A stretch of 62,156 nucleotides of DNA, the filler included, from an uncultured bacterium (lineage in GTDB: Bacteria > DAOPZR01): assembly GCA_964637655.1 (NCBI GenBank). It is 4 parts of 4 records of this genome, joined end to end, with 100 filler letters (N's around TTAATTAATTAA, not from the genome) between each part and the next. Parts side by side here need not be neighbours in the genome. Positions count along the whole stretch, not along the records: positions 47,100 to 62,156 come from CAZWUZ010000059.1; 3 more parts are not named here. One strand, written 5' to 3'. The notes under the pieces were generated by a model. That model did not search any database. It was given only the letters and a program-made list of their open reading frames with translations, and was not told the DNA's origin. Positions 15,718-62,156 of the stretch are shown in pieces. Within the stretch, counting starts at the first letter, position 1. Every line of letters starts with the position of its first letter. A program made the position numbers and the translations under genes.

Positions 15718-15817
15718 NNNNNNNNNNNNNNNNNNNNNNNNNNNNNNNNNNNNNNNNNNNNTTAATTAATTAANNNNNNNNNNNNNNNNNNNNNNNNNNN
15801 NNNNNNNNNNNNNNNNN
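15718..15817. other. Artificial contig linker
   Basis: N run containing TTAATTAATTAA (stops in all frames). Confidence 0.95.
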
Positions 15818-31424: not shown

Positions 31425-31524
31425 NNNNNNNNNNNNNNNNNNNNNNNNNNNNNNNNNNNNNNNNNNNNTTAATTAATTAANNNNNNNNNNNNNNNNNNNN
31501 NNNNNNNNNNNNNNNNNNNNNNNN
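31425..31524. other. Artificial contig linker
   Basis: N run containing TTAATTAATTAA. Confidence 0.95.
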
Positions 31525-46999: not shown

Positions 47000-47099
47000 N
47001 NNNNNNNNNNNNNNNNNNNNNNNNNNNNNNNNNNNNNNNNNNNTTAATTAATTAANNNNNNNNNNNNNNNNNNNNNNNNNNNNNNNNNNNNNNNNNNNN
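47000..47099. other. Artificial contig linker
   Basis: N run containing TTAATTAATTAA. Confidence 0.95.
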
Positions 47100-47108
47100 G
47101 AATAACGT

Positions 47109-48806
47109 TCAGGAGACAGCCGGTGCCGGTGCTGCGCCGCCATGGCGGCGCAGCAGCCAGACCGTCGGCAGGTGATAGCGCATGTGCCAGGTGGGGTTGT
47201 CCGGCCAGGTGAAGCCACCCCAGGTGCTGCGCCGCGCAAAGGTGCGCACCGGCGAATAGCGTGACCCGTCGCCAAGCGCACGGAAAAAAACGCTGCTGCC
47301 CAGTTCCGGACGGTACGCCGGGTGCAGCAGACGATTCCCCATCGAAAACTCGAAATCGCACAGCAGGAAATAATCGGGACGCTCGCGGTCGAGCCGGGCC
47401 AGGTCAAAGTTGTAGATGCCGATCCGGTAAGGGGTGTCACGCTGCTGCACCGCCGGTACGGAATAGAAATAGACCTGGTTCACCCCGATGGTCGTGCCGG
47501 GTGGAAGATGCGCGAGCAGCCAGTCGGAAGCGGCGGTGCGCGGATCCGTGCCGTGCAGCAGCCGCAGCAGCATGACGCTGCAGACGAGCAACTGTGCCAG
47601 AACGATACCGGTCACGACCAGCCTGACGCGCGGCCATACCGGCCGCTGCAGCAGATCCGCCAGGGCGACAGCAAGCGCGGGCAGCAGCAGCGTCAGGTAA
47701 TGGGACAGGTAGACGTTGTTCATCGCCAGCAGCAGGCCGTTGAGCACAAGCGCCGCCAGCAGCAGACCGCGCGCCGGTGTCACCGGCATAACCAGGGCCG
47801 CGACTGCCAGCCAGACCGCCGGCGCGACCAGCGGCCCATAGGCCTCGGGCAGGGCGATCATTCCGTAAAACCGGAACACGTTTTCCTGAAAATCGCGGGG
47901 CTGCATTTGCGTGGTGCGCGCGAAATGGCTGGCAAACACGCCGCGGAATTCATGCAGAAAGCCACCGGGATCGAAACAGGCCTGCGGACAGCCCAACAGG
48001 CAGCCGGCAACAGTTCCCGCCGCCAGCCAGCGCACGGCCGTACGCCACGGCCAGAACGGCAGGCGCAGGCGCCAGCGGAAAAACACCGCTGCCGGCAGCA
48101 GAAAGAAAATGATGCCCGCGTTCAGCTGGGTGAAAACAGCCAGCATGGTGCTGAGCCCGACGGTGAAAAAATCCAGCCGGCGCGGCTGCGGCCGCAGGGC
48201 ACAACGGCTCAGCGCCAGCCAGCCCAGCAGGCCCCAGAACAGGTGGGGCGCGGTCACGTAGAAATAGTGCGCGTCGATGACCGCCAGCGGCGTGAGCGCC
48301 AGCACTGCCGCCGCCAGCATCCCGGCCGTCCGGCCGGCATACACCTTGCCGAAATGGTAGGCAACAGCCACGGTGAGCGCGCTGAGCAGCGCGGACAGCG
48401 CGCGACCGCAGCGGTACAGGCCGTCAAGCGCGGGCAGGTTGCTCTCGTAGTAGCTGCGGTCGCGCACCACCTCGATAAAGCCGAGGGCGTCGGCCGCCTG
48501 CAGCGTGGCGCCGGACAACAGCATGTGCCAGCTGCCGAGGGCCAGCCGGGTGTCCCGGTAGTGGAACAGGTCGGCCGCCAGCGGAATGGCATTCATGAAC
48601 GCGCCTTCGTCCGGATGGTACGAGCGCAGGGTTCGGGTTTCCGACGGCAAGCCCCACCCGATCCCGCTGAGGCGCAAGACCAGTGCCAGCAGGGTCAGCA
48701 GCAGCAGGGCCAGGCCGCGCCGGCGGCGCGTTGCCAGCCAGGCAGACGGCGACAGCGGGTTCATGCGTGGCGGCCGGCACCGCGACCGGGGTGCGGGGTC
48801 CGGCAT
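47109..48806 (-). CDS. GT-C fold (PMT_2/ArnT-like) glycosyltransferase (start uncertain: 48806 or 48764)
   Basis: LRLSGIGWGLP..YHPDE, many TMs, and DPRTAASDWL..LPPG. Confidence 0.8.
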   Translation of the reverse strand: MPDPAPRSRCRPPRMNPLSPSAWLATRRRRGLALLLLTLLALVLRLSGIGWGLPSETRTLRSYHPDEGAFMNAIPLAADLFHYRDTRLALGSWHMLLSGATLQAADALGFIEVVRDRSYYESNLPALDGLYRCGRALSALLSALTVAVAYHFGKVYAGRTAGMLAAAVLALTPLAVIDAHYFYVTAPHLFWGLLGWLALSRCALRPQPRRLDFFTVGLSTMLAVFTQLNAGIIFFLLPAAVFFRWRLRLPFWPWRTAVRWLAAGTVAGCLLGCPQACFDPGGFLHEFRGVFASHFARTTQMQPRDFQENVFRFYGMIALPEAYGPLVAPAVWLAVAALVMPVTPARGLLLAALVLNGLLLAMNNVYLSHYLTLLLPALAVALADLLQRPVWPRVRLVVTGIVLAQLLVCSVMLLRLLHGTDPRTAASDWLLAHLPPGTTIGVNQVYFYSVPAVQQRDTPYRIGIYNFDLARLDRERPDYFLLCDFEFSMGNRLLHPAYRPELGSSVFFRALGDGSRYSPVRTFARRSTWGGFTWPDNPTWHMRYHLPTVWLLRRHGGAAPAPAVS

Positions 48807-48918
48807 ATGTATTTCCGGTATCTCACCATGTACGGCTGTATAACAGACCCGTTGCCGTATTGCCAGTTGCCCGTCAGTGCGACACATGCTATAAACGCTG
48901 GCAGGAGACTGTGCCGCT

Positions 48919-49944
48919 ATGGGTGTAACCGATCTTATCGAAGCCTCACGCCTGCTGCTGACCTGCGCACAACGCGGCTACCTGACCCCGTACAAGGTCG
49001 TGAACCTGCTGCGCAATGCCTGGGCCATGCTGTGCCGCCAGCCGGAATTGAGCACCCTGCCGTCTGCCGTCATTCTGGAGCCGAACAATTTCTGCCAGCT
49101 CGACTGCGTCGGTTGCGCCGTGCCGCAACCGCAAGCCGACCCGATTGCGGACAAGGGCTGCCTCGACCCGCAGCTGGCCGAAACCATCCTTGACGATTGC
49201 AGCCGCGCCCTGCTCATCACCGTCATCTACCTCGGCGGCGAGCCGTTTCTCAACCGTGACCTCCTGCGCATTGTCGCCGCCGCGCATCAGCGCCGCGTCT
49301 TCACGGTCGTCAGCACCAACGGGTCCTTTCCCACCCCCGACGACTGGGGCGCGCAGGTTACCGCCAGCGGCCTTGACCTCATCATTTTCTCCTTCTCCGG
49401 GCTTGATCAGGAAACCCACGGACAATACCATCGCCAGGGCAGCCTCGAGCAGACGCTCGCCAATATCCGCAAGCTGCTGGCCGTACCGCGCCATCCCCGC
49501 ATCCTGCTCCGCTACATCCGCAACCGGAACAACCGGCACGAAACCAACGCGGCCGTGCGGGCGTTCGTCCGACAACTCGGCAGGGTGTCGCTGGAAATCC
49601 GCGAGGGCTTCAAGGAGATCGATTTCACCAATCTGTTCGCCAATGAGTCAGCCATCCGCACACAGCTGGCTGACCAGCCGGTGACCAACCATTGCCACAA
49701 CCTCTGGTTCCTCCCGGTCGTGCGCTGGACAGGTGACGTCATCCCCTGCTGTTTCTTCTTCTACCGCGTGGCAACGCTCGGTTCGGTGCGGGAGCAGCCG
49801 CTCTCCGCCATCTGGCGTTCGCCGCGCTACACCGGGTTCCGCCGCCTGCTGCTCACCGACCGCCGCAAACTGCTCGGCTGCCTGCTGTGCGACGGCAAGA
49901 TGGGCTTCCAGTACAACTGCTTCAAGCGCGAACTGCCGAAGTAG
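48919..49944 (+). CDS. Radical SAM protein with SPASM/twitch domain
   Basis: CQLDCVGC, GGEPFL, STNG, and C-terminal CHNLW..GDVIPCC..CLLC. Confidence 0.88.
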   Translation: MGVTDLIEASRLLLTCAQRGYLTPYKVVNLLRNAWAMLCRQPELSTLPSAVILEPNNFCQLDCVGCAVPQPQADPIADKGCLDPQLAETILDDCSRALLITVIYLGGEPFLNRDLLRIVAAAHQRRVFTVVSTNGSFPTPDDWGAQVTASGLDLIIFSFSGLDQETHGQYHRQGSLEQTLANIRKLLAVPRHPRILLRYIRNRNNRHETNAAVRAFVRQLGRVSLEIREGFKEIDFTNLFANESAIRTQLADQPVTNHCHNLWFLPVVRWTGDVIPCCFFFYRVATLGSVREQPLSAIWRSPRYTGFRRLLLTDRRKLLGCLLCDGKMGFQYNCFKRELPK

Positions 49945-49951
49945 CCGCCGG

Positions 49952-50015
49952 CTGCAACGATTAGCGCTCAACGGGCGCTATGTTTCCAAGCGCCTGTTGC
50001 AGCGCGAAGTTGGCC
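49952..50015 (-). repeat. attC-like site of cassette 5 (64 bp, divergent loop)
   Basis: Minus strand: GGCCAAC-TTCGC-GCTGCAAC-AGGCGCTTGGAAACATAGCGCCC-GTTGAGC-GCTAATC-GTTGCAG. Confidence 0.85.
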
Positions 50016-50145
50016 GCCATATTTTCTGATTTCATCGGTTCTGTACCCCCACGCCATGCCAGTAACCGTATCCGACCATCACCCCCGATTGCCATCAACA
50101 CAAGCATGCCTTCGGAGTGCACGCCACTATGGCGGCGACTATTCT

Positions 50146-51294
50146 TCATTTCAGCACCTCGAAAATATAATCCCCTTCATTGCTGTGAATTCGAATTGTG
50201 TTATCTACCAGTGTCAAACGATAATTTGGCGCGGCGGAAAATCTCACAAATTCACTATTGGTCGTTTTGTATTCTCCAATAATACATCCTTGGTTATCAA
50301 GCACTATTATCGATTTGATTAACTTGATGCCATTCCTGGTAATCAATTCACCAACGAAAAAACTCGCATTTTCTGCGATTTGTAAATTATCAATCCTTCC
50401 CGGAACATCGAATTGATGGATAACGGAAAATCCACTACTCTCGTAAATATTAACCTGATACTTAATGGGCTCAATGCTGATAAGCTTTTCGATAGCAAAA
50501 TATCCGAAATCACTTGTGCTGCCAATAATGCATATATCAGAGAAATTAGTGTCTCTAAATTGCTTGATAAGTACACCATTTTCATCGTAAATCGATACTT
50601 CATCACTATTTTCATTTCGTAAACTAGTTTCAGTACAAATAATTTTCCCATCATGAAATACTTGTACTCTATGAGCTGTCGATGGTTTTGACCAAACAAT
50701 TTCTCCGGTCCCGCTGATTTTCATCAGATTGGAATTTGTCAATATTATTAATTTCCCATCCTGCAGTAACACAATTTGCGAAATCCCTCTCGTCTGCGAT
50801 TTATCTACAGTCGCCATCAACTTTCCTTGAAAATCATACTGATATAATCCTGCATTTATAACCGGGTCAATCTGAAATTCCCATTCGCCATTTAATCGTC
50901 CAACAACCCAGATGAAATTCTTATCTTTAGGAATGAATATCAATTCAGATTGTACTGGAAATGCCGCAATTGTTTCTCCATCTTTAGTAAGTATAGTCAG
51001 ATGATGTCTGCCGGTTCCTGTGCTTACCGCCGCATAAATATTCGGATTTTCCGTTGGTATCACGCGCCCGTATTGTGAAATGTCCACCATGGTACCCGAT
51101 ATGGAACCTGATTGCATTCCGATAAATCTAATTTTGTCGCCTTGAACAGTTATTCCTGCGGGAAGATTGCTTTGTTCTACCGTTCTAACCGGGGTATCAG
51201 TTTGTTCTCCTTGTTCTTGGCACCCTGAATAAACGACGAGCGATAGTATTAGCAATAAGGTAATATATGTTTTAGGGAGAATCGCTCGCATCAC
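50146..51294 (-). CDS. Cassette 5: putative lipoprotein, probable beta-propeller
   Basis: Signal ending VYSGC, repeated YDxxG beta-strand units, AT-rich codons. Confidence 0.75.
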   Translation of the reverse strand: MMRAILPKTYITLLLILSLVVYSGCQEQGEQTDTPVRTVEQSNLPAGITVQGDKIRFIGMQSGSISGTMVDISQYGRVIPTENPNIYAAVSTGTGRHHLTILTKDGETIAAFPVQSELIFIPKDKNFIWVVGRLNGEWEFQIDPVINAGLYQYDFQGKLMATVDKSQTRGISQIVLLQDGKLIILTNSNLMKISGTGEIVWSKPSTAHRVQVFHDGKIICTETSLRNENSDEVSIYDENGVLIKQFRDTNFSDICIIGSTSDFGYFAIEKLISIEPIKYQVNIYESSGFSVIHQFDVPGRIDNLQIAENASFFVGELITRNGIKLIKSIIVLDNQGCIIGEYKTTNSEFVRFSAAPNYRLTLVDNTIRIHSNEGDYIFEVLK

Positions 51295-51337
51295 ATTTTC
51301 GCTCCATATTGTCGTTAAGTATTAATCATCGCCGTAA

Positions 51338-51402
51338 GGCCAACGATGAGCGCTCTGCGTTGAGCCGCGCCAGCGGCGAAGCGCAGGAGCGCAATGTTAT
51401 CC
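51338..51402 (-). repeat. attC-like site of cassette 4 (65 bp)
   Basis: R'' GGATAAC, L'' GCTCCTGC, L' GCAGAGC and R' GTTGGCC. Confidence 0.9.
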
Positions 51403-51494
51403 GACGCATCCTTTGATTATATCACTGCCTGACCTCTAGCACATGTAATAGCTAATATACTATATCCAGTCCATGATAGCCATACAGGCTTGTG

Positions 51495-52958
51495 TCATGG
51501 ACCATCGAGTGTCGGGTTAGCATATGTATGGCGTCTGCGAGTTTCTGCCGGGGACAACTGCCGACGGCTAGTAGGAATCCTGGTAATAGTTGAGGCTCGT
51601 CGCATATATTCAGCAATCCAGTCGTTAATAGAAACGGTGTTGCGCTGTCGCATCACATCAAGAAACTCACGATAGGCAAAATCATTAGCTGGTTGTCGTT
51701 CAATAATGCCACCGTTTGATACATACACACAAAACGGCCCATCTTCGCCATAGCGTATGCTCCAGTCAATATTTCCCTGCTCATCATAGGCACCGATGCA
51801 TTTGAGCAGATAAAGTCTCCCGCGGCGCGAAGAAACAAGTGTTTTCCATAGTTGTTCTTCATTATTTCCCTGTGTGACGTATTCGCAAATTCGGGTATAT
51901 GCTCCGTCACGAGTGAGATAATACACCGTTTCTCTCGTTTCCTGCCATTCCCATCCGCCATCATCCGTAACGACGATGAATTCAGGTACCGGCGTCCCGA
52001 TCACATTCTGCAGACGGCATGATATGACTTTCGTGATCCGAGCCTGCTCACTATAGGAACAGGCATCGTAATACAGTGAAAGCTTGGCCAGCAAATCAAT
52101 GAATGCTGGAGGGATACCAAACTGTGATAAATCTGTATCGGGTTGGCGTATCGCGAGTTGTCGTAGAATATATGCTACGTTGATGTAATCATGCTTTTTC
52201 CAGGCATGCTGTAATGCGTTTGTAAGTTGGACCGGGCTGCTGTCCAGGAAACTTAGTGATGTAAGCGGGACCCATCCTGTAAGATAACGTTCGTGATTGA
52301 TGAGCGCGAGATTTTCTGCTGTAGCAACGGCAATAACCGTGACTGAATCACCGCGGGTCAATAGACCAGCCGGTGCTCCTGCAGCATAATAGTTTGAACG
52401 AACATTCAGTGTATTGTCGATACACAAGGCTAGATGGTTATCCCGTGCTGCAGGCTGTTGAAACCATCCTCTCGCTTCAAGTTCCATCGCCGGTTTAAGC
52501 ATCTGCCAGCAGCTCGGAGTTTCGTTTCGCATCTCGATCTTGAATTCATCGTTGAAACGGCGACAGTCAGCGGCAAATTGCTGACGGACAAATTCAGATT
52601 CACCGAGAATATCAAGCGCAATTACCAGTTCACGCCCGACTTCCAACTTATCAAGCGCTAGCCTCGGGACATCTTTGTTGATATTCTGTCCCGCTAAGGT
52701 CATTAAGGTGTCACTGGCAATGATTGTTTTGATTCGGGAAACCAACGCCTCGGTAACTGGCTCGTGCAATAGCGGCAGACGCGGAGAAAAATGAGCTGTG
52801 TTCAAAATGTCGGGATAATCTCGATTTGCCTGTGGTGGCAGTGGCGACGGATCATCAGGGGGTTCCGTACAATTCCATCCCATCAGCGCCATGGTTAGAT
52901 AGAATGCGAATATCCAGAACATCCCCCATCGCCCGGGACAATTCATCGGGAAAGTCAA
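51495..52958 (-). CDS. Cassette 4: exported protein with a bacterial SH3b-like domain (start uncertain)
   Basis: Hydrophobic N-terminus ending in Cys plus a Pro linker. LNVRS..GLLTRGDSVTVI..TGWVP. Confidence 0.7.
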   Translation of the reverse strand: MTFPMNCPGRWGMFWIFAFYLTMALMGWNCTEPPDDPSPLPPQANRDYPDILNTAHFSPRLPLLHEPVTEALVSRIKTIIASDTLMTLAGQNINKDVPRLALDKLEVGRELVIALDILGESEFVRQQFAADCRRFNDEFKIEMRNETPSCWQMLKPAMELEARGWFQQPAARDNHLALCIDNTLNVRSNYYAAGAPAGLLTRGDSVTVIAVATAENLALINHERYLTGWVPLTSLSFLDSSPVQLTNALQHAWKKHDYINVAYILRQLAIRQPDTDLSQFGIPPAFIDLLAKLSLYYDACSYSEQARITKVISCRLQNVIGTPVPEFIVVTDDGGWEWQETRETVYYLTRDGAYTRICEYVTQGNNEEQLWKTLVSSRRGRLYLLKCIGAYDEQGNIDWSIRYGEDGPFCVYVSNGGIIERQPANDFAYREFLDVMRQRNTVSINDWIAEYMRRASTITRIPTSRRQLSPAETRRRHTYANPTLDGP

Positions 52959-53039
52959 ACGATATTTCCCACATACTGAATAGCTGCCAATCGCATCACA
53001 TCACCGCCCAATACTCCGGCTTCATTATCGTCATCGCGA

Positions 53040-53104
53040 GGATAACGATTAGCGCTCTGCGTTGAGCCGCGCCAGCGGCGAAGCGCAGAAGCGCGAAGTT
53101 CGCA
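53040..53104 (-). repeat. attC-like site of cassette 3 (65 bp)
   Basis: R'' TGCGAAC, L'' GCTTCTGC, L' GCAGAGC and R' GTTATCC. Confidence 0.9.
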
Positions 53105-53109
53105 GTTCA

Positions 53110-53439
53110 CTATTTGGTGTCCATATCAGCTACATCTGCGGCCCAGAATTCAATTCCACCTGGTCCTGCCTCGAAATCACCAACGCGAACTCGCAAGCCA
53201 TCTAATCCCCGCTCGGAAACATCTTTAATGAAAAGACCCGGACATGCAGGAAAACCCTTATGCACCGCAATATCCTGCGGGCGCAGGAATCGAAGACGAC
53301 GCACAACTGACCCATTTTTTAGGACCAAATCAATCCAAGAATCATTCGGCTCATCCGGTGATCGATAAAAGTGATACTCAACAATCTGATATTCCCAAGG
53401 CTTATCGATAATAGTATGGTCCGGATCTTCTTTATTCAT
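53110..53439 (-). CDS. Cassette 3: hypothetical protein (109 aa)
   Basis: Fills the cassette. AGGTG SD next to the core site, stop 5 nt before R''. Confidence 0.8.
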   Translation of the reverse strand: MNKEDPDHTIIDKPWEYQIVEYHFYRSPDEPNDSWIDLVLKNGSVVRRLRFLRPQDIAVHKGFPACPGLFIKDVSERGLDGLRVRVGDFEAGPGGIEFWAADVADMDTK

Positions 53440-53447
53440 ATTTCACC

Positions 53448-53512
53448 TGCGAACGATTAGCGTTCTGCGTTGAGCCGCGCCAGCGGCGAAGCGCAGCAAC
53501 GCGAAGTTAGCT
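53448..53512 (-). repeat. attC-like site of cassette 2 (65 bp)
   Basis: R'' AGCTAAC, L'' GTTGCTGC, L' GCAGAAC and R' GTTCGCA. Confidence 0.9.
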
Positions 53513-53518
53513 GGGATT

Positions 53519-53797
53519 TTAGCATATTTCTGTTGCTGTGAACCCAAGAGAGTGTACCTCGTCATCTGTAGAAATCCGAAAATCTACAATTTCGGATTTG
53601 CCGCAGGCGGGGCACTTTTTCCCTTTATAGGTTTGATCAGGTGATATTTTACGTGGGTCTGGAAATACCGATTCGTCTTCATCGCAGGTAATCAGAATTT
53701 TACCGCATGATGGGCAGGTCGAAAATATCAACGATTGACCTTGTGTGCAAATCGGGCAATCCTTGCGCAAATACCATATCGGTTTGTTAAATTCCAT
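53519..53797 (-). CDS. Cassette 2: small Cys-rich zinc-ribbon-like protein (92 aa)
   Basis: CPIC, CPSC, CDED and CPAC. Fills the cassette. Confidence 0.78.
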   Translation of the reverse strand: MEFNKPIWYLRKDCPICTQGQSLIFSTCPSCGKILITCDEDESVFPDPRKISPDQTYKGKKCPACGKSEIVDFRISTDDEVHSLGFTATEIC

Positions 53798-53812
53798 ATC
53801 ATCTCTCTCTAC

Positions 53813-53878
53813 AGCTAACGATTAGCGTTCTGCGTTGAAGCCGCGCCAGCGGCGAAGCACAGCAACGCGAAGTTGAGC
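53813..53878 (-). repeat. attC-like site of cassette 1 (66 bp)
   Basis: R'' GCTCAAC, L'' GTTGCTGT, L' GCAGAAC and R' GTTAGCT. Confidence 0.9.
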
Positions 53879-53925
53879 ATTTAGATTCTGGAATCATTGC
53901 TTCGCACCTCTCAACATAATATCAG

Positions 53926-54264
53926 TCACCACCACCATGTGCCAATCATTAATCCCAGCCAATATGCTAATACGGACACATACAGCAAACCAAAAAGTAA
54001 CGCTGGCACTCTAGTCCTGATGTTTTCTCCTGGTGTTATCGCTTTTGCCACACGCTGCCGATAGTGGCGAACCAGTGCCCAATAACCTGCCACAATCAAC
54101 CATAATGAAGTAACAATCGGAACGATGTTGCGCTGCAATCGTTCGAAATTGATGGTGATAATATTCGATTCATCTCCGCTAACATCTACCGTTGCCAGTA
54201 CGATAGAAGGCGACAACAGCATTATGCCAGTCATGGCTACAATGATCAGTGCGAGAAATCGCAT
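53926..54264 (-). CDS. Cassette 1: small membrane protein (signal peptide plus 2 TM)
   Basis: Three hydrophobic segments, in the first cassette. Confidence 0.7.
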   Translation of the reverse strand: MRFLALIIVAMTGIMLLSPSIVLATVDVSGDESNIITINFERLQRNIVPIVTSLWLIVAGYWALVRHYRQRVAKAITPGENIRTRVPALLFGLLYVSVLAYWLGLMIGTWWW

Positions 54265-54308
54265 GTCATCTCTGATGTAATATTCATTCGTGCCTCAATC
54301 ATTATCGT

Positions 54309-54342
54309 ATGCCCAACATTCATATTGTACACATGTGTATAA
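54309..54342 (-). other. attI-like crossover site (G/TTGGGC) with adjacent palindrome
   Basis: GTTGGGCAT matches cassette 1 R'' ATGCTCAAC at 8/9 positions, with no attC hairpin upstream. Palindrome TACACATGTGTA at 54328-54339. Confidence 0.7.
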
Positions 54343-54347
54343 CACAG

Positions 54348-54376
54348 ATTGTACTGCTACTTTCGGGGAATGTCAA
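54348..54376 (-). promoter_or_regulatory. Pc-like sigma70 promoter reading into the cassette array
   Basis: TTGACA (54376-54371)-N17-TACAAT (54353-54348). Confidence 0.8.
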
Positions 54377-54500
54377 TAGGGCAGGCAAAAACAGTGCAAA
54401 ACAGAGTATTCATGTAATTTACTGCCGGCAGAGATATTGCAACAACATCATAGAATTTCGACCGCCGGGCAAAATCGGAACGGCAGCAGTATGCATGCCC

Positions 54501-54538
54501 CCGGGGGTTGTTACACACAAGTGTGTAACAACTGCCGG
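54501..54538 (-). terminator. Hairpin immediately after hydG (terminator or operator)
   Basis: 18-bp arms matching at 16/18, with perfect core GTTGTTACACAC-AA-GTGTGTAACAAC. Confidence 0.55.
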
Positions 54539-54542
54539 AGCA

Positions 54543-55952
54543 TCAGTAGGGACAGTCGCGCACTGTGCCGGTGCGGATGGCCGCGAGGCGGGAGGCAACT
54601 TCATCCCGCTGCGCGTCAGGGAGTTGCGCCAGTTCGCGTGCGATAAGCATTTCGCCCGCGGCGAGCACGTCCGCCGGCGCATAGTCGATGAGGTATTCCT
54701 GGAAGGTCAGCAGCGCGTTGGGGGTGCAGAAGCGCTTGATGAAGCCGGGAATCGCCTGCTCCATGAAGTGCTCGCCCGTGCGGCCGCGGCGGTAGCAGGA
54801 GGTGCAGAAACTCGGCAGGTAGCCGTCGCGGATCAGTTCCCCGATAACCGCGTCGAGCGTGCGCGCATCACCGAGCGCAAACTGCTCGCGCTCCAGTCGC
54901 TGTGCCCCGTCGGTATCGGTATAGCCGCCCAGTTCGATATTCGAGCCCGCATCGATCTGCGACACCCCGACCGCGAGCGCGGCGCGGCGCACCGCGGGGT
55001 TTTCGCGTGCGGTGCAGATGAGGCCGGTGTAAGGAACGGCGAGGCGCAGCACCGCGACAAGATGCAGGAAATCATCGTCGCTGACCAGCCACTGCGGGTC
55101 GTGCGCCACCCCGTGGGCCGGCTGCAGGCGCGGGAAACTGATGGTGTGCGGCCCCACGCCGCCGCGCTCCTGCAGGTGGCAGGCATGGCTGACCAGGCCA
55201 AGCACCTCGAAGCGCCAGTCATACAACCCGAAGAGCGCGCCCAGACCGACATCGTCGCACCCCGCGCGCATGGCGCGCAGCAGCCCGTCGAGCCGCCAGG
55301 CGTAGTCCGCCTTCGGCCCCGACGGATGCACCTGCGCGTAGGTCGCATGATGGTAGGTTTCCTGAAAGATCTGGTAGGTACCGATGCCCGCGGCCTTGAC
55401 GGTGCGGTAACCCGCGTCGTCGAGCGGCGCGGCATTGATATTGATGCGGCGGATTTCCCCGCGCCCCTCTTTCACCGCGTAGGCACTGCGCACCGCGTCA
55501 GCAATGAAGTCCGCGCCGTAGTCGGGATGCTCGCCGAAGACGAGGATGAGCCGCTTATGTCCCGCCCGCTCCAGCGCCACCACCTGCGCGCGCAGTGCCT
55601 GATCGTCGAGCGTACGGCGCACCGCGCTGGTGTTCGAGCGGCGGAAGCCGCAGTAAGCGCAGTCGTTGACGCATTCGTTGCCGACGTAGAGCGGGGCAAA
55701 GAGAACGATGCGGTTGCCGTAGATGCGGTCCTTGAGTTCCTGCGCCGCGGCGCGGATGGCTGCGCGCGGTTCCGGGGCGGACGCGGTGACCAGGCGCGCG
55801 GTTTGCGCCGGGGTCAGCGGCTGTTTGGCCAGCGACTGCGCGCAGAGGTCGCGCACCTCGGCGGCATCCGCCGGCGGCTGTGCCAGCAGCGCCTGCAGGC
55901 GGGCCTCGTCGATGAAATCGGTGAAATCGTCGCTCAGTCGGCGCTCTGCCAC
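54543..55952 (-). CDS. hydG: [FeFe]-hydrogenase maturase HydG
   Basis: YGNRIVLFAPLY, CVNDCAYC, FQETYH, GPHTISFPR and second cluster SFCTSCYR..FCTPNA. Confidence 0.95.
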   Translation of the reverse strand: MAERRLSDDFTDFIDEARLQALLAQPPADAAEVRDLCAQSLAKQPLTPAQTARLVTASAPEPRAAIRAAAQELKDRIYGNRIVLFAPLYVGNECVNDCAYCGFRRSNTSAVRRTLDDQALRAQVVALERAGHKRLILVFGEHPDYGADFIADAVRSAYAVKEGRGEIRRININAAPLDDAGYRTVKAAGIGTYQIFQETYHHATYAQVHPSGPKADYAWRLDGLLRAMRAGCDDVGLGALFGLYDWRFEVLGLVSHACHLQERGGVGPHTISFPRLQPAHGVAHDPQWLVSDDDFLHLVAVLRLAVPYTGLICTARENPAVRRAALAVGVSQIDAGSNIELGGYTDTDGAQRLEREQFALGDARTLDAVIGELIRDGYLPSFCTSCYRRGRTGEHFMEQAIPGFIKRFCTPNALLTFQEYLIDYAPADVLAAGEMLIARELAQLPDAQRDEVASRLAAIRTGTVRDCPY

Positions 55953-57010
55953 GTGATCCCCCCCTGCAGTTGCCGCCGGCGGCGATAGCGCGCTGACGAA
56001 CCCGCCCCCGTGCCGACGGTGCGCCCGAGTGACGCGAGCATTTCGCGCAGGCGACAGTCAGCACCGGTGGCATCGTCATGCGGTGCCGGCTTCCCCGGGT
56101 AGACCAGGTACTGCGCGCGATACTGTGCCGGCGTGACATTCGGCATCACTACGTTGGCGCCCCACTGCAGTCCCGCGGCATAGCCCGCCTCCGGATCGAG
56201 CGTCGCCAGCGCGGTAGTACTCGGGATATTGGCATCGGGAAGGAGCAGGCGGGTCAGCGCAATGGCAGCCAGCGCCATGGCGGCGGTGTGCGGGACCTGC
56301 TCCGCATCCGTCGGCACAGGCCGCTGCCCGAGCGGCGTGTCCGGATGCGGAATGAACGGCCCGATACCGACCATGTCGAGATCGAGCGCGGCAAAGAGCT
56401 GGATGTCGGCCGCCAGGTCGTCGAAGGTCTGTCCCGGCAGCCCGACCATGACCCCGCTCCCCACCTCGTAGCCGAGGTCGCGCAGCAACGCAAGCTGCGC
56501 GATGCGGTCGCTCGGCTTGCCGCCAAGCGGCGGATGGTAGCGGTCGTACAGTTCGCGGTTTCCCGTTTCGAAACGGAGCAGGTAGCGGTCCGCACCCTGC
56601 GCGCGCCACTCGATGAGGTCGTCGCGGTCGCGCTCACCCAGCGACAGGGTGACCGCCAGCCCCGTCTCCCGGCGCACGGCGCGAATGGCTTCGCTGACCA
56701 GCGCGCGCGTCAGGCCCGGGTCTTCCCCGCCCTGCATAACGACGGTGCCATAGCCGCACGCGGCCGCGCGCTGCGCCGCGGCAACGGTCTCGTCCAGCGT
56801 CAGGCGATAGCGGGACAGGGCGCGATTGTTCGCGCGCAACCCGCAATAGTAACAGTCGCGGGCGCAGGTGCTGGAGATCTCGATCAGCCCGCGCAGGTGA
56901 ACGGCATCGCCCACGGTGGCGGCGCGCACGCGATCCGCCTCCTCGCGCAGCGCCGCGCGGGACGCGGGATCGGCGGCACGCAGCCGTGCCGCCAGTTCGT
57001 CGTAGTTCAT
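55934..57010 (-). CDS. hydE: [FeFe]-hydrogenase maturase HydE
   Basis: RGLIEIS..CARDCYYCGLR, YLLRFET, GIGPFIPHPDTP, ANVVMPN and YLVYPGK. Confidence 0.93.
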   Translation of the reverse strand: MNYDELAARLRAADPASRAALREEADRVRAATVGDAVHLRGLIEISSTCARDCYYCGLRANNRALSRYRLTLDETVAAAQRAAACGYGTVVMQGGEDPGLTRALVSEAIRAVRRETGLAVTLSLGERDRDDLIEWRAQGADRYLLRFETGNRELYDRYHPPLGGKPSDRIAQLALLRDLGYEVGSGVMVGLPGQTFDDLAADIQLFAALDLDMVGIGPFIPHPDTPLGQRPVPTDAEQVPHTAAMALAAIALTRLLLPDANIPSTTALATLDPEAGYAAGLQWGANVVMPNVTPAQYRAQYLVYPGKPAPHDDATGADCRLREMLASLGRTVGTGAGSSARYRRRRQLQGGITWQSAD

Positions 57011-58173
57011 GCCGCCGGCGGCTGCTCCGGCAGGGTGACCGTGAACGTCGTGCCCACGTCGGGCTCGCTCGCCACGGTGACGCTGCCGCCATAGAGTTCC
57101 GCCAGTTTCTTGACGATGGAGAGTCCCAACCCGCTGCCAAGGATGCTGGCGGTTTTGCGGTTGCGGATGCGCACGAATTCGCCGAAGAGGCGCCCGACTT
57201 CCTGCACGTTCATGCCGATGCCGGTATCCGCGACCCGCAGCATGACGCCGGCGGCTTCGCGGCGCAGGGTGACGGTGACGCTGCCCTGGTCGCGGTTGTA
57301 CTTGACCGCGTTGGTCAGCAGGTTGTTGCAGATAATGGAGAGTTCGAGCCGGTCGGCGGTGAGCAGCACGCGCTCCGGCCCGTCGACCGTGACGGTGATG
57401 CTGCGCGCCTGCGCCGCGGGCTGCACGGTTTCCACCGCCTCGCGCACCACGGCGGCGAGATCCTGTTCCTGCAGTTCGCGCGCGCGCAGCCCCGACTCGA
57501 TCTTCGTCAGCTGCAGCAGGTCGCCGATGAGCTTGCGCATCTGCTCGGCGCGGACGATGGAGCGGTTGACCGCGTCGTCATAGGCGGAAAGCTCGCTCCC
57601 CGCCACGCGGTCGCGGATGATGCGCAGGTAGCCGTCAATGGCGTCGAGCGGCGCCTTGAGTTCATGCCCGAGCACGGAGAGAAACTTGAACCGCACCTGC
57701 TTTTTTTCCGCCGCCAGCCGGCGCGCATGGCGGGCGAGGACGACGGAGCGCGACGCCTTGCGCACCACCGCGCGCAGTTCGTCCGGGGTGAAGGGCTTGG
57801 CGAGGAAATCGTAGGCGCCGCGCTTGATGGCGGCGACCGCGGTCTCGAGCGAGGCGTAGGCGGTGATCATCACCGTCTGCATGCCGCTCTCCCCCGCCGG
57901 CAATTGTTCGAGCACGTCCAGCCCGGTCATGCCCGGCAGCTTGTGGTCGAGCAGCAGCAGGTCGGGGAGCCCGCGGCGGAGGATGGCGAGCGCCTCCTCC
58001 CCGCTCGCCGCCTGCTCGACGGCAAAGGTGATGCTCAGATCGAGGTCCGTCTCGGCAACGGTGAAGCGCTCAAGCGCGCGGGTGATCCCCTGGCGCATCC
58101 CGGGTTCGTCGTCGACCACCAGCACGCGCAGCCGCGTGCCGCTGTCCGCGGGTACCGCGTCGGGCCTATCCAT
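57007..58173 (-). CDS. Hybrid receiver-histidine kinase
   Basis: VVDDE, LLDHKLP, KPF, HELKAPL, NAVKYN, DTGIG and GSGLGL. Confidence 0.92.
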   Translation of the reverse strand: MDRPDAVPADSGTRLRVLVVDDEPGMRQGITRALERFTVAETDLDLSITFAVEQAASGEEALAILRRGLPDLLLLDHKLPGMTGLDVLEQLPAGESGMQTVMITAYASLETAVAAIKRGAYDFLAKPFTPDELRAVVRKASRSVVLARHARRLAAEKKQVRFKFLSVLGHELKAPLDAIDGYLRIIRDRVAGSELSAYDDAVNRSIVRAEQMRKLIGDLLQLTKIESGLRARELQEQDLAAVVREAVETVQPAAQARSITVTVDGPERVLLTADRLELSIICNNLLTNAVKYNRDQGSVTVTLRREAAGVMLRVADTGIGMNVQEVGRLFGEFVRIRNRKTASILGSGLGLSIVKKLAELYGGSVTVASEPDVGTTFTVTLPEQPPAA

Positions 58174-58523
58174 GGAGGAGGTACTCCATCTGCGCCAGGC
58201 AGCCGGCCTGCGGCCTGCTGCTCCCGGCACGTTCGTTATGTTTTTGGGGGCGCAGCCGGGCCTGCGGCCCGGCAGTGCCCGACACCGTCAGGTAGTCAGC
58301 CATGGAGGAGGTGCTCCATCTGCGCCAGGCAGCCGGCCTGCGGCCTGCTGCTCCCGGCACGTTCGTTANNNNNNNNNNNNNNNNNNNNNNNNNNNNNNNN
58401 NNNNNNNNNNNNNNNNNNNNNNNNNNNNNNNNNNNNNNNNNNNNNNNNNNNNNNNNNNNNNNNNNNNNGTGCCCGACACCGTCAGGTAGTCAGCCATGGA
58501 GGAGGTGCTCCATCTGCGCCAGG
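58170..58523. repeat. 130-bp tandem repeat: 30-bp gene-end copy plus 100-bp GC hairpin unit (copy number unresolved)
   Basis: CCATGGAGGAGGT(A/G)CTCCATCTGCGCCAGG at 58170, 58300 and 58494. N gap at 58369-58468. Confidence 0.85.
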
Positions 58524-58900
58524 AGCTGCTCGAAGCGCACCGGTTTGGCGAACATGGCGTCCGCCTTGACCCACGAGCGCTCCTCGGCAGTGGCGGCGTC
58601 AATCGAGATGCCGGTGTCGGCGCTGACCGCGGTGACGAGGATGACGGGGATTTTCACGTCCAGCTTTTTGATGTGGTAGCAGAGGGTGAACCCCGAGTCC
58701 CAGTTTTCCATCATCACGTCAACGATGGCGAGGTTGACCGGTTCCGTGCGCAGCACCTCCTCGGCGGCAGCGGCGCTGTTCGCTTCGAGCACGCGGAACC
58801 CCGCGCCGCGCAGCCGCAGCACCAGCTGCAGGCGGTAATCCTCGTCGTCATCGACCACCAGCACGGTCGCATCGTGGGCTTTCGCCTTTGTCTCAGTCAT
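58490..58900 (-). CDS. Single-domain response regulator
   Basis: LVVDDD, IVDVMME, LVTAV and KPV. Confidence 0.9.
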   Translation of the reverse strand: MTETKAKAHDATVLVVDDDEDYRLQLVLRLRGAGFRVLEANSAAAAEEVLRTEPVNLAIVDVMMENWDSGFTLCYHIKKLDVKIPVILVTAVSADTGISIDAATAEERSWVKADAMFAKPVRFEQLLAQMEHLLHG

Positions 58901-60929
58901 TGCGTTCCTCCGCGGCGGCCGGCGGCCGCCGTCTGTCCGTATCGCTCAGCGCGGCGCCGCTGCGCGGCAGCACCACGGTAAAGGTCGTCCCCGTCGGCCC
59001 GGCCGCCGGGTCGTTGTTGGACACCACGCGGATATCGCCGCGGTGCATCTTGACGATGCCGTAGCTGACCGCCAGCCCCAGCCCCGTTCCCTTCCCCGCC
59101 GGCTTGGTGGTGAAGAACGGTTCGAAGATGCGCGTCAGGTCGCCCGCGGGGATACCGGTACCCGTATCGCGCACAGCCAGGAAGATGCGCTCGCCGCGCA
59201 CCTCGCTGCGCACGGTCAGGGACCCGCCCGACGGCATGGCGGCATAGGCATTGACGACGAGGTTGGTGAGCACCTGCAGCAGGCGGTCGCCGTCAGCGGC
59301 GAGCACCGGGTCGGCCAGCGTCAGCTCGGTCTGCACGGTGATGCCCGGCGGCGGCTGATGGCAGTCGAGCACCTCGCGCACCAGCGCGTGCAGGTCGGTC
59401 GGCACGCTCTCCACTGTGTTGTTCTGCCGGGCGAAGTGCAGCAGCCCGGCAACGATCTTCTTGCAGCGCTCCGCCTGCCGCGCGATCAGGTCGAGGTCGG
59501 CGAACTGTTCCGAGTCCGGCTGGCTGGCATCGCGCAGCAGGTGCGCATACATGAGGACCACCCCGAGCGGGTTGTTGACCTCGTGGGCGATGCCGGCGGC
59601 CAGCTGGCCCAGCCCGGCGAGTTTCTCCGACTGCACCAGCGCCTCCTGCGTGGTCGCCAGTTCCGTGACCGTGGCGCGCAGCTGCTCGATCGTATGCGGC
59701 AGGCACATCTCGTTTTCCGCCAGTCCGAGGCGGATGGCGGCGGCATGCTCACGGCAGGTTTCGTAGCCGCAGGCCCCGCAATTGAGTTCATCCTCCGGCC
59801 CGCGCTGCCCGAGCCGGCGCAGCACCGCGGTCAACTCAGCGTCGTCGGGAACGGGGAGACGCTGGTCAGCGGCCGCATAGGTGCGCGTCAGGTCGAGGGC
59901 CGCGTCAGCCGCCAGTTCGCGCTGCCAGGCGACGCGGTCGAACGCTTTCTGCTGCCGGCGCACGTAGTCGCCGATGCGGGAGCGGCGGCGGAAGAGCGGC
60001 TCGGTGCAGGTCATGCCGGCGCCGGCGAGACAGCCCTGGCAGCAGAGCACCTCGAGCAGGCGGGCGGAGAGGTCGCCGCTCTCGAATTCGCGCACCGCCT
60101 CGACGAACTCGGCGCGCCCGGCGGCGGTGACGATCTCGTTGGTGGTGAGATCCTCATTCAGCGCCGCGGCCTGCAGCAGTCCGCGGCTGACGGCAAAGAG
60201 TCCGCCCAATCCGCCATGCGGCGGGTCGAACTCCGCGGGCGGGGCGGCGGCCGGGTCGAGACCGCGCTCCTGCCACAATTCGCGCAGTTCGCGGAAAGTA
60301 AGCGCGGCATCAACATCACGGTGCCCCGCGGCGTCGGTGACCTCCCCCTTCTTGGCGATGCACGGCCCGATGAAGACCAGCGGCATGGCGCCGTGCCGGC
60401 GGCGCACCGCGCGCGCCATCGCCACCATCGGCGAGACGATGGGCGCGAGCACCGGCACCAGTTCCGGGTGGTAGCGTTCGACGTAGCCGACGATACCGGG
60501 ACAGGAGGTGGCGATATAGCGCCGGTCCGGTTCCTCCGCCAGCAGCCGCGCATAGGCGGCGGCGACGAGGTCGGCCCCGTAGGCGACGGCAAACACGCGG
60601 GCGAAGCCGAGCGCATGCAACGCCCCGATGACCTGCCGCGCGTCGAGTTCCCCGAACTCGGCGGCAAAACTCGGGGCGAGAAGCGCGCCGACCGGCGCGG
60701 GGGCGGCAAGCAGCGTTCGCACCGCGGCGGTGCCGTCGAGCACCACCTTCGCCCCCTGGCTGCAGACGCGCACGCAGTTGCCGCAGGCGATGCAGCGCTC
60801 GGGCATGACCTCCGCCTGCCCGTCGACGATGCGGATGGCCTTGGCCGGGCATTCGCGCACGCAGGTAAAGCAGGTGCGACAGCGTTCGCGCAGCGTGCGG
60901 ATGAGCGGCTCGGCGGGCGTCTGGCGCAT
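58893..60929 (-). CDS. Sensory [FeFe]-hydrogenase-like domain fused to a histidine kinase (group C type)
   Basis: 2[4Fe-4S], variant H-cluster motifs ATSCPG, GPCIAKKGE and EVLCCQGC, an FeS domain LNCGACGYETC, HisKA AHEVNNPL and HATPase. Confidence 0.88.
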   Translation of the reverse strand: MRQTPAEPLIRTLRERCRTCFTCVRECPAKAIRIVDGQAEVMPERCIACGNCVRVCSQGAKVVLDGTAAVRTLLAAPAPVGALLAPSFAAEFGELDARQVIGALHALGFARVFAVAYGADLVAAAYARLLAEEPDRRYIATSCPGIVGYVERYHPELVPVLAPIVSPMVAMARAVRRRHGAMPLVFIGPCIAKKGEVTDAAGHRDVDAALTFRELRELWQERGLDPAAAPPAEFDPPHGGLGGLFAVSRGLLQAAALNEDLTTNEIVTAAGRAEFVEAVREFESGDLSARLLEVLCCQGCLAGAGMTCTEPLFRRRSRIGDYVRRQQKAFDRVAWQRELAADAALDLTRTYAAADQRLPVPDDAELTAVLRRLGQRGPEDELNCGACGYETCREHAAAIRLGLAENEMCLPHTIEQLRATVTELATTQEALVQSEKLAGLGQLAAGIAHEVNNPLGVVLMYAHLLRDASQPDSEQFADLDLIARQAERCKKIVAGLLHFARQNNTVESVPTDLHALVREVLDCHQPPPGITVQTELTLADPVLAADGDRLLQVLTNLVVNAYAAMPSGGSLTVRSEVRGERIFLAVRDTGTGIPAGDLTRIFEPFFTTKPAGKGTGLGLAVSYGIVKMHRGDIRVVSNNDPAAGPTGTTFTVVLPRSGAALSDTDRRRPPAAAEERND

Positions 60930-60938
60930 GACCGGCCC

Positions 60939-62156
60939 TCAGTGCACCGTATCGCGCTTGTGGTAGCGCGTATGCAGCAGGCGGTGCGCCTGTTCCCCGC
61001 CCGGTTCGCCGAGGTACTGCGTGTAGAGGCGGCGGATCTCGGGGTTGTTGTGCGACACGCGCAACGCCTCCTTCTGGTCGAGTTCGTAGAGTGCCTGCAG
61101 CCGCGCGCGCACCGCGTCGGGCTTGACCCCGATCGGCTGCCCGCCGCCGTTGATGCAGCCGCCCGGGCAGGTCATCACCTCGATGAAGTGCAGGTCCTGC
61201 CGCCCGGCGCGCAGCTGTTCGAGCAGGGCGCGGGCATTGCCCAGGCCGCTGACCACGGCAATGCCGAGTTCCTTCCCGTCGACCGTCACCTTCGTCTCCT
61301 TGATGCCGTCGAAGCCGCGGATGGCCTTGAGCGCGGGCACCTTGAGTTCCTTACCGGTGAGCAGGAAATGCGCGGTGCGCAGCGCCGCCTCCATGACCCC
61401 GCCGCTGCCGCCGAACAGCTTGCCCGCGGTGCTGCGCGTGCCGAACGGACTGTCGGCGAATTCCGGCTCGAGCGAGGCGAAGTCGATGCCGTTCATGCGG
61501 ATCATGCGCACCAGCTCGCGCACGGTGAGCACCGCGTCGATATCCGGTTCATCCTGCTGCGTCATCTCCTCGCGCCCCGCCTCGAACTTCTTGGCGGTGC
61601 AGGGCATGACGGCAACGCTGAAGATCTCCTGCGGCGGACGGTTGATCTCCTGCGCGAAGAACGACTTGATGACCGCACCGAGCATCTGCTGCGGGCTCTT
61701 GCAGGACGAAAGGTGCGGGATGAACTCGGGGTAGAACTGCTCGAGGAACTTGACCCAGCCGGGCGAACAGGAGGTGAACATCGGCAGTTTCCCGCCCTGT
61801 CGGATGCGGTTGACCAGCTCGGTCGCCTCCTCCATGATGGTCAGGTCGGCGGAGAACGAGGTGTCGAAGACGTAGTTAAACCCGAGGCGGCGCAGCGCGG
61901 CGTTGAGCAGCCCGCTGACGTCGCTGCCGGCGGGCAGCCCGAACTCCTCGGCGATGGTCACCGAAACGCTCGGCGCATGCTGCACGACCACCGTCTTCTC
62001 CGGGTGGCGCAGGGCGTCGACGACCTCCTTGATGCTGCTCTGCTCGCGCAGCGCCCCGGTCGGGCAGGCCATGATGCACTGCCCGCAGTTGACGCACGAC
62101 GACAGGTTGAGTCCCTGGTCGAACGTGGTGGCGACGTAGGCGTTGCAGCCGCGCCC
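60939..62156 (-). CDS. hydA: [FeFe]-hydrogenase group A catalytic subunit (5' part outside window)
   Basis: FTSCSPGW, MPCTAKKFE, EVMTCPGGCINGGG, preceding ferredoxin motif CVNCGQC..CPTGAL and C-terminal LLHT. Confidence 0.93.
   Translation of the reverse strand, partial: GRGCNAYVATTFDQGLNLSSCVNCGQCIMACPTGALREQSSIKEVVDALRHPEKTVVVQHAPSVSVTIAEEFGLPAGSDVSGLLNAALRRLGFNYVFDTSFSADLTIMEEATELVNRIRQGGKLPMFTSCSPGWVKFLEQFYPEFIPHLSSCKSPQQMLGAVIKSFFAQEINRPPQEIFSVAVMPCTAKKFEAGREEMTQQDEPDIDAVLTVRELVRMIRMNGIDFASLEPEFADSPFGTRSTAGKLFGGSGGVMEAALRTAHFLLTGKELKVPALKAIRGFDGIKETKVTVDGKELGIAVVSGLGNARALLEQLRAGRQDLHFIEVMTCPGGCINGGGQPIGVKPDAVRARLQALYELDQKEALRVSHNNPEIRRLYTQYLGEPGGEQAHRLLHTRYHKRDTVH

Follow-up and report, generated by a model that had tools for sequence, protein, structure and literature searches.

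Five short inverted repeats in the genome of an uncultured bacterium (GTDB lineage DAOPZR01; assembly GCA_964637655.1, here G000) raise the question of whether they are the attC sites of an integron, and, if so, whether their unusual shape calls for a recombinase other than the integron integrase, IntI. The window analysed is a stretch of 62,156 nt that joins four contigs (C55, C56, C57 and C59) of this metagenome-assembled genome (3.99 Mb in 485 contigs, 90.55 % complete), with runs of N between them; features that lie across such a run are not neighbours in the genome. All five repeats are located within a single contig, C59 (window 47100-62156), where a stretch from approximately 49950 to 54300 displays 39-48 % GC and the surrounding DNA 64-70 % GC. 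A sequence-only reading of this locus had drawn attention to a 7-nt L'-R' spacer, relaxed cores and a variable extrahelical base, and had proposed that a divergent class of recombinase may act on the repeats.

The evidence assembled here indicates that the five repeats are very probably integron attC sites of a functional type, which belong to a lineage-specific family and form an array with an attI site and a Pc-like promoter, the integrase gene having been lost. The locus is an integron cassette array of a known kind from a barely sampled phylum, and not a new recombination system. The unusual geometry survives in a sharpened form: one spacer arm of 7 nt, a single extrahelical base, and an IntI lineage devoid of the His-His clamp. 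The second genome on which much of this account draws, G001, is the only other member of the phylum of G000 in the set of genomes compared.

Geometry of the five attC sites and of their family

The minus strand of the window is the coding strand of every open reading frame (ORF) between the five repeats. Read along this strand, each site consists of NNNNAAC, a 5-nt spacer, an L'' box of 3 nt, one extra base and a further 4 nt, a loop, an L' box of 7 nt, a 7-nt spacer and GTTNNNN. All five were found in place, and the geometry of a 5-nt R''-L'' and a 7-nt L'-R' spacer was borne out, as was the identity of the extra L'' base on the coding strand (G, C, T, G and G in sites 1 to 5). The R''-L'' spacer reads TTCGC in sites 1, 3, 4 and 5, and ATTGC in site 2, which is also the one site with GCTCATC as its L'-R' spacer, the other four sharing GCTAATC. 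From AAC to GTT the sites span 56-58 nt, and the loop of site 1 is unlike that of the other four. A structural descriptor written after the SS_cons line of the IntegronFinder training alignment returned spacers of 5 and 7 nt, seven of seven L pairs in each of the five sites and a bulge at L'' position 4, the L''/L' layout being the '<<<-<<<<' of that line. Alternative registers at these coordinates (3/5, 4/6 and 6/8; sites 2 and 3 only) always give the 3' spacer two nt more than its 5' counterpart. The descriptor was used for spacer lengths only and is unspecific, with 84 hits in the window compared with 49-81 in 10 shuffles.

With regard to the cores, nine of the ten heptamers deviate from RYYYAAC/GTTRRRY at one position or more, the R'' of site 5 (GCTCAAC) being fully canonical. 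To this extent the cores are relaxed, as had been claimed; that they keep only AAC and GTT was an overstatement, because the R' of sites 2-5 is the exact reverse complement of the next downstream R'', and because the family consensus, GGCYAAC/GTTRGCC, is a single position off canonical. Viewed cassette by cassette, R' is perfectly complementary to the R'' of the following site in four cassettes of five, and complementary at six of seven positions in the fifth. Similarly, the first bases of a cassette (TTNNNN) are exactly complementary to its own R'' in four cases, and at five of six positions in cassette A, which starts with TTGGGC. Judged from sequence, this complementarity is the mark of a crossover between G and TT, the putative crossover position. 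Each ORF stops just ahead of its R''. On the bottom strand a G follows AAC, as described for most known attCs (Bouvier 2009, PMC2727003), and when both strands were folded, a check that the sequence-only reading had itself proposed, the bottom strand proved the more stable in every site.

These five sites are part of a much larger family. A covariance model (R1), built on 40 sites from G000 and G001 (alignment A1), recovers them from the 62-kb window at 56.8-78.2 bits (E 3e-14 to 1e-20), with the next best match at 19.6 bits. At E ≤ 0.001 the same model identifies 49 family members in G000 and another 50 in G001, and an nhmmer search returned 48 family copies in G000 (E < 0.01) on at least 15 contigs. 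In metagenome data R1 produced 80 hits in 34 short contigs, seven of which are low-scoring reverse-strand duplicates of other hits. Pairing holds in 85.3 % of the cells of the alignment, compared with 27.6-38.4 % when the partners are slid, and two-sided, compensatory changes occur in 10 of the 19 pairs. AAC and GTT are invariant throughout the 40 aligned sites, apart from two sites with GTA.

Folding of 102 distinct family sites yielded a single-bulge structure for 63. Of these, 43 have arms of 10 and 8 nt and nine have arms of 11 and 9 nt, the R'-L' arm being the longer by two, and the bulge lies 8 nt from R'' in 43. The 5/7 geometry is thus a fixed trait of the family and not a quirk of five repeats. 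On the bottom strand, C is the bulged base in 30 of the 63 and A in 23; G accounts for 10 and T for none. The bottom strand is the more stable in 85 of the 102 (mean difference -1.57 kcal/mol). On the R''-L'' arm 81 sites have one net extra base and 12 have zero, with five showing other values and four being branched. The distal extrahelical base is wanting in this family. Where a second base would stand, a symmetric 2 x 2 loop follows a stem with a bottom-strand G-T wobble in the most frequent subfamily, and a second subfamily places the extra base within a 3 x 4 loop.

A search of Rfam gave no match at E ≤ 1, and among 64 scanned stretches arrays were seen only in those from G001. Matches to R1 at E ≤ 0.1 were obtained in 41 of 51 loci from other genomes; these are single, except for two in L111, and score 18.5-33.4 bits, compared with 57-87 for the family. 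They were set aside because some 17 chance matches would be expected by our own arithmetic. No attC-like repeat families were found near the IntIs of G034 (4.1 kb) and G015 (2.5 kb).

How far these sites depart from known ones was assessed against the 96-site training alignment of IntegronFinder (Cury et al. 2016, supplementary file 013), tallied by eye. The R''-L'' spacer of that set is 5 nt long in nearly all sites, and the L'-R' spacer measures 4 nt in one, 5 nt in 33, 6 nt in 59, 7 nt in two (gcu29 and gcu35) and 10 nt in one (gcu44). On the top strand, C stands in the bulge of 64 sites, G in that of 22, T in that of six and A in that of four, and among the cores GGCTAAC/GTTAGCC, GCATAAC, ACAGAAC and the like are frequent. 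Neither the relaxed cores nor the variability of the extra base thus goes beyond known attC variation. In the published experiments of Bouvier et al. (2009; PMC2727003) changing the L'' extra base had at most a 2.7-fold effect on attI x attC recombination, and certain IntIs are described as preferring C at this position (Larouche and Roy 2011, PMC3053210). The spacer is the more unusual feature; for each arm of the central spacer, Nivina 2016 (PMC5027507) gives 'usually five to six bases'. The IntegronFinder alignment and model, as described by Cury et al. (2016; PMC4889954), leave the spacers unaligned and allow up to 10 columns for the L'-R' spacer; a 7-nt spacer should therefore cost little in that model. 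The sequence-only reading had suggested that standard models may score such sites poorly.

Set beside classical attC sites, such as those of aac(6')-Ib and aadA1, the family shares the inverse AAC...GTT cores, the 5-nt R''-L'' spacer, an L'' box of 3 + 1 + 4 nt that pairs with a 7-nt L', and an extra base on the R''-L'' arm. It also shares the G after AAC, a stabler bottom strand, and a position directly 3' of a promoterless ORF. It differs in its L'-R' spacer (7 nt compared with mostly 5-6 nt in the training set), in its net extra bases (one in 81 of 102 sites, compared with three in the aac(6')-Ib site folded alike), and in the bottom-strand extra base, which is G in approximately two thirds of the training set but in only 10 of 63 family sites. 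The structural control for these comparisons was one class 1 site, that of aac(6')-Ib, together with the literature; the spacers of this site are 5 and 6 nt, and those of the class 1 IMP-1 site 5 and 5 nt. R1, a narrow family model, did not recover attC sites of a class 1 integron on a plasmid, its best score there being 10.1 bits in the wrong place, which has no bearing on how models of known attCs would score the family. A closer likeness in one respect is the dfrA1 attC, with extrahelical A-N7-8-C and thus a bottom-strand L'' extra base of C and not G; it has two extrahelical bases, whereas the family has one, with an internal loop at the place of the second. The same source reports that this site is preferred by IntI2*179E and SonIntIA, and that IntIs differ in the bases and spacings they accept (PMC3053210).

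The cassette array and its head

The array comprises six cassettes (A to E2) and five attC sites, which bound five of the six (Table 1). At its head stands an attI core whose 15 nt are identical to the copy on contig C1 of G001. The corresponding motif, TACAANANGAANGTT, occurs once in G000 (window 54329-54315), 498 nt upstream of the G in the R' of site 5, and five times in G001, where each copy heads an attC array; in a reversed control it did not occur. Upstream of the core is a Pc-like promoter, both hexamers of which are conserved on C1 of G001, and by analogy with other integrons it would drive expression of the cassettes. A further 170 nt or so, including an 18-nt inverted repeat, separate this promoter from the radical-SAM/BATS stop codon. 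No match to IntI was found in contig C59, nor any recombinase gene beside the array. As there is no intI in this contig, the array is filed as a CALIN (cluster of attC sites lacking integron-integrases), and it is one that keeps its attI.

The radical-SAM/BATS gene has an orthologue of 80 % identity in G001, and synteny stops approximately 10 nt past its stop codon, G001 having no array at this locus. The left flank of the array showed no homology to the locus of G001 with which the right flank is syntenic. None of the cassette proteins matched a family in Pfam (above cut-off) or NCBIfam, although the ORF of cassette B gives weak hints of a zinc ribbon, below cut-offs; the 62-aa ORF at 49961-50149 extends into attC site 1. 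Cassette D is known from elsewhere: three further studies, apart from that of the best holder, yielded contigs that carry it at 90-99 % likeness, from runs labelled as anaerobic digester, activated sludge and freshwater sediment. In one of these sequences (X8 contig, record 26) the end of cassette D and its attC are followed by sequence unlike that of the window. As a cassette with another neighbour, this example suggests, at the level of sequence, that cassettes move. Joins between metagenome contigs at the repeated attC sites (sides of 21-30 letters) were considered separately and judged to be repeat artefacts, and no weight was given to those portions that runs X5, X7 and X8 leave uncovered.

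As in the sedentary chromosomal integrons exemplified by the Vibrio cholerae repeats, and in CALIN as described in PMC4889954, a single lineage carries dozens of near-identical attCs, most cassettes are of unknown function, and clusters of attC sites occur with no integrase nearby. Differences are that the cluster in the window retains an attI core and a Pc-like promoter, that the sites are short (56-58 nt from AAC to GTT in the five of the window), and that cassettes and genome differ in composition. On this last point, the 29 cassettes of G000 that are bounded by two attCs (those of window 49958-54316 plus 24 on contigs C5, C28, C29, C74, C170, C210 and C271) average 46.7 % GC (39.0-55.0), whereas the genome has 65.5 % and the attC sites have a mean of 64.2 %. 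That genes of foreign appearance are bounded by sites resembling the host is relevant to the unsettled question of how cassettes are formed.

Table 1. Positions of the features discussed. Coordinates are those of the window unless a contig is named; R1 scores are in bits
Feature	Position	Strand	Details
attI core	54315-54329	minus	TACAATATGAATG followed by TT; putative crossover between 54317 and 54316
Pc-like promoter	54348-54376	minus	TTGACA-N17-TACAAT; 11/12 consensus positions; directed into cassettes
Cassette A (498 nt)	53819-54316	minus	attI to G of site 5 R'; ORF 53926-54264 (112 aa)
attC site 5, first of array	53813-53878	minus	R'' GCTCAAC; R' GTTAGCT; R1 69.6
Cassette B (365 nt)	53454-53818	minus	ORF 53519-53797 (92 aa); start exactly complementary to own R''
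attC site 4	53448-53512	minus	R'' AGCTAAC; R' GTTCGCA; R1 78.0
Cassette C (408 nt)	53046-53453	minus	ORF 53110-53439 (109 aa)
attC site 3	53040-53104	minus	R'' TGCGAAC; R' GTTATCC; R1 78.2
Cassette D (1702 nt)	51344-53045	minus	ORF 51495-52958 (487 aa)
attC site 2	51338-51402	minus	R'' GGATAAC; R' GTTGGCC; R1 73.2
Cassette E (1386 nt)	49958-51343	minus	ORF 50146-51294 (382 aa); 62-aa ORF 49961-50149
attC site 1, last of array	49952-50015	minus	R'' GGCCAAC; R' GTTGCAG; R1 56.8 (E 3.1e-14)
Radical-SAM/SPASM gene	48919-49944	plus	One border of the low-GC stretch
Radical-SAM/BATS gene	54543-55952	minus	Other border of the low-GC stretch
Runs of N	7164-7173, 15718-15817, 31425-31524, 47000-47099, 58369-58468		C59 includes an internal gap
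intI-like 3' ends	C168 (L050:1-230), C215 (L049:1-210)		Start at R-H-S-F-A-T-H right after the repeated element
intI-like 3' end	C446 (L051:1-160)		Starts at box II codons at contig base 1; no element seen
Other recombinase 3' ends	C480, C130		Broken at box II codons
Recombinase 5' part	C478		Ends in HWHDLRH; runs into the same element in inverted orientation

Broken and intact integrase genes

A curious pattern surrounds the recombinase genes of G000, six different ones of the tyrosine type being broken at the same box II codons, Leu-Arg-His (Table 1). The repeated element found at these breaks has terminal inverted repeats of at least 50 nt, made of copies of TTCGGCATAA, two of which are inverted around a 6-nt spacer in the manner of a dif-type core site, and GCGGCAT is present at both kinds of element junction. 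P0003, an IntI from a metagenome, stops at the same codon and continues with the same read-through peptide into the same element. From its sequence context it resembles a homing element whose targets are the best-conserved codons in genes for tyrosine recombinases. Searches of G001, of IMG/VR and of the other loci compared did not recover it.

Whether the sites of G000 are still recombined is a matter of their present activity and not of their identity. They may be true attCs by descent that have become a frozen relic, no longer recombined now that every copy of intI is broken, a reading that is compatible with an integron array and which we hold to be possible, albeit on the doubtful side. 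Consistent with it, intI beside the window attI is deleted, G000 contains only 3' fragments of the gene (C168, C215 and C446), broken at the Arg-His codons of box II, and P0003, 67 % identical to the G001 enzyme, comes to its end at that codon and in that element. Set against this, an intact copy may simply be unassembled in a genome of this completeness and number of contigs, and the perfect complementarity of cassette ends in four cases of five, together with stems kept by compensatory changes, speaks against long decay. The occurrence of cassette D elsewhere with another neighbour likewise does not sit easily with a relic.

The integrase that accompanies the family is evident in G001. Here the arrays are headed by an attI core that directly abuts the start of intI, in the canonical divergent layout. 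Of the five platforms, the gene beside the 15-nt motif TACAAYAWGAAWGTT is intact on C280 (L040), internally deleted and out of frame on C115 (L039) and partial on C1 (L041); on C65 (L036) only its start lies beside attI, and on C28 (L031) there is no trace upstream of the start codon. The attI-promoter region is nearly the same in four of these five platforms.

The intact protein, P0001, scores 378.8 bits against TIGR02249 (cut-off 265), its residues 127-438 matching positions 3-314 of the 315-position model in one stretch. Its alignment to IntI1 spans 331 residues at 47 % identity, has four gap positions, and takes in the whole of the integron-specific insertion. The HTLRH, LLGH and IYTHV motifs, the box I and II residues and RKYP...WPWFW are all present in this alignment. 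By its sequence P0001 is a bona fide integron integrase, akin to IntI1 and VchIntIA in its family score, its insertion and its conserved contact residues. A different recombinase class is accordingly not supported, because the same attC family adjoins such an enzyme in G001. The sequence-only reading had named two findings that would speak against it, strong hits to existing attC models and co-occurrence with an ordinary IntI carrying the insertion, and the second of these is what G001 displays. The idea of a divergent recombinase holds in a narrower sense only, in that this IntI is locally divergent, at the His-His clamp.

The structural basis of that clamp is described in PMC3053210, where the distal extrahelical T is held by stacked H240/H241 in VchIntIA (H250/H251 in IntI1) plus a proline, and the L''-box base is contacted by the equivalents of IntI1 K156, R168, K219, Y220 and W229. 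P0001 conserves all of the latter, as well as the equivalent of P242. The clamp pair H250/H251 is replaced, by Pro-Gly in P0001 and P0002 and by Pro-Cys in P0003. Across 121 IntIs (P0001 and its 120 best relatives) the first clamp position is His in 116, Pro in three, Tyr in one and Phe in one, and 102 of them carry His-His as the pair. Pro is found in P0001, in P0002, its twin at 99 %, and in P0003 (67 % identical); six other IntIs, including IntI1, have [H/Y]-H without exception. Thus the loss of the clamp in the integrase matches the loss of the clamped base in the sites, which is a correlation within one lineage and not proof.

P0001 differs from IntI1 also in an N-terminal extension of approximately 125 aa (residues 1-125; L040:246-620). 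Most of its 120 best relatives are 380-453 aa in length and cover 85-98 % of the query, with many named 'integron integrase' at source; the extension is therefore a trait of the clade and not an artefact of annotation. Within it, residues 40-93 weakly resemble the core-binding motif of the protein itself (26 % identity to IntI1 residues 37-89, E 0.077).

It could still be argued that another class of recombinase, Xer-like or some other tyrosine or serine enzyme, acts on the sites, and that the IntI of G001 is incidental. The geometry does depart from the classical description, and G000, with no intact intI, possesses other tyrosine recombinase genes on C353, C26 and C478. Even so, we consider this highly improbable: no such gene lies beside the array in C59, the five attI-headed arrays of the family in G001 are associated with intI in every state from intact to absent, and the extrahelical base occupies L'' position 4, at 8 nt from R'', the very place read by IntI, with the residues that contact it conserved in the IntI of the lineage. 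Weaker again, to the point of being practically negligible, is the notion that the repeats are repetitive extragenic palindromic (REP)-like or terminator hairpins between small genes, which would suit GC-rich hairpins just after ORFs but not the AAC...GTT flanks with their cassette-wise complementarity of the outer four bases, the conserved one-sided extra base and asymmetric spacer of about 100 sites, the lack of terminator-like T tracts in the one stretch scanned (53850-54650, including site 5) or, above all, arrays that begin at a conserved attI next to intI, a context judged to refute it.

Several observations nonetheless weigh against the interpretation of the locus as an integron array with ordinary attC sites. 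The array does not form a complete integron, as the approximately 230 nt from the attI core to the radical-SAM stop at 54543 contain no intI, and no intact intI exists in the assembly of G000, where three 3' fragments (model positions 265-314) are found at contig starts. Co-occurrence with IntI derives from G001 and one nearly identical metagenome contig (L128). As for the sites, an L'-R' spacer of 7 nt exceeds the published 'usually five to six', with two parallels among the 96 training sites, and the family has one net extrahelical base, compared with the two or three, among them a conserved bottom-strand distal T, of attC sites as they are described in PMC5027507 and PMC2727003. Furthermore, predicted folding pairs TT with AA within the nominally unpaired spacer in 67 of the 102 sites; this prediction, which is for naked DNA only, leaves a 2-nt GA bulge beside the AAC triplet.

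Recognition of the sites and its implications

For an integron array of this kind, a mechanism can be proposed in four steps, of which only the second and fourth are shown, and these in part. Firstly, the bottom strand (the plus strand of the window) would fold in vivo into a hairpin with an R box of AAC/GTT, an asymmetric spacer, an L box, one flipped-out base and a GC-rich stem. Secondly, the IntI of this lineage, acting in trans, would bind this hairpin and cut between the G and TT of R', inserting cassettes at attI and excising them between attCs. Thirdly, the enzyme that reads the 5/7 spacer and the lone extra base is probably an IntI with the contacts to the L'' base and without the His-His clamp. 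Finally, with no intact intI assembled in G000, the array may at present be static.

We tentatively suggest that this amounts to a co-evolved, simplified recognition, in which the distal T and the His-His clamp have both been lost and the choice of strand would depend upon the single L''-box base and the lopsided spacer. Under such a scheme the L''-box base could be of almost any identity, albeit never T on the bottom strand, and the two extra bases of the R'-L' arm would correspond to the 2-nt GA bulge that modelling places beside the cleavage triplet.

Recognition of attC sites has been held to be structural, resting on two or three flipped-out bases, a 6-bp gap from the first to the last of these, and an unpaired spacer of 5-6 nt. 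In some hundred natural sites of the present family, the R box, L box and proximal base are retained, yet the distal base is gone and one arm of the spacer is longer. With their integrase, these sites offer a natural pair for asking which features drive strand choice and synapsis. If simplified recognition is correct, they would also test, in nature, what share of the attC 'grammar' can be dispensed with. Models and rules tuned to class 1 integrons describe only part of attC diversity.

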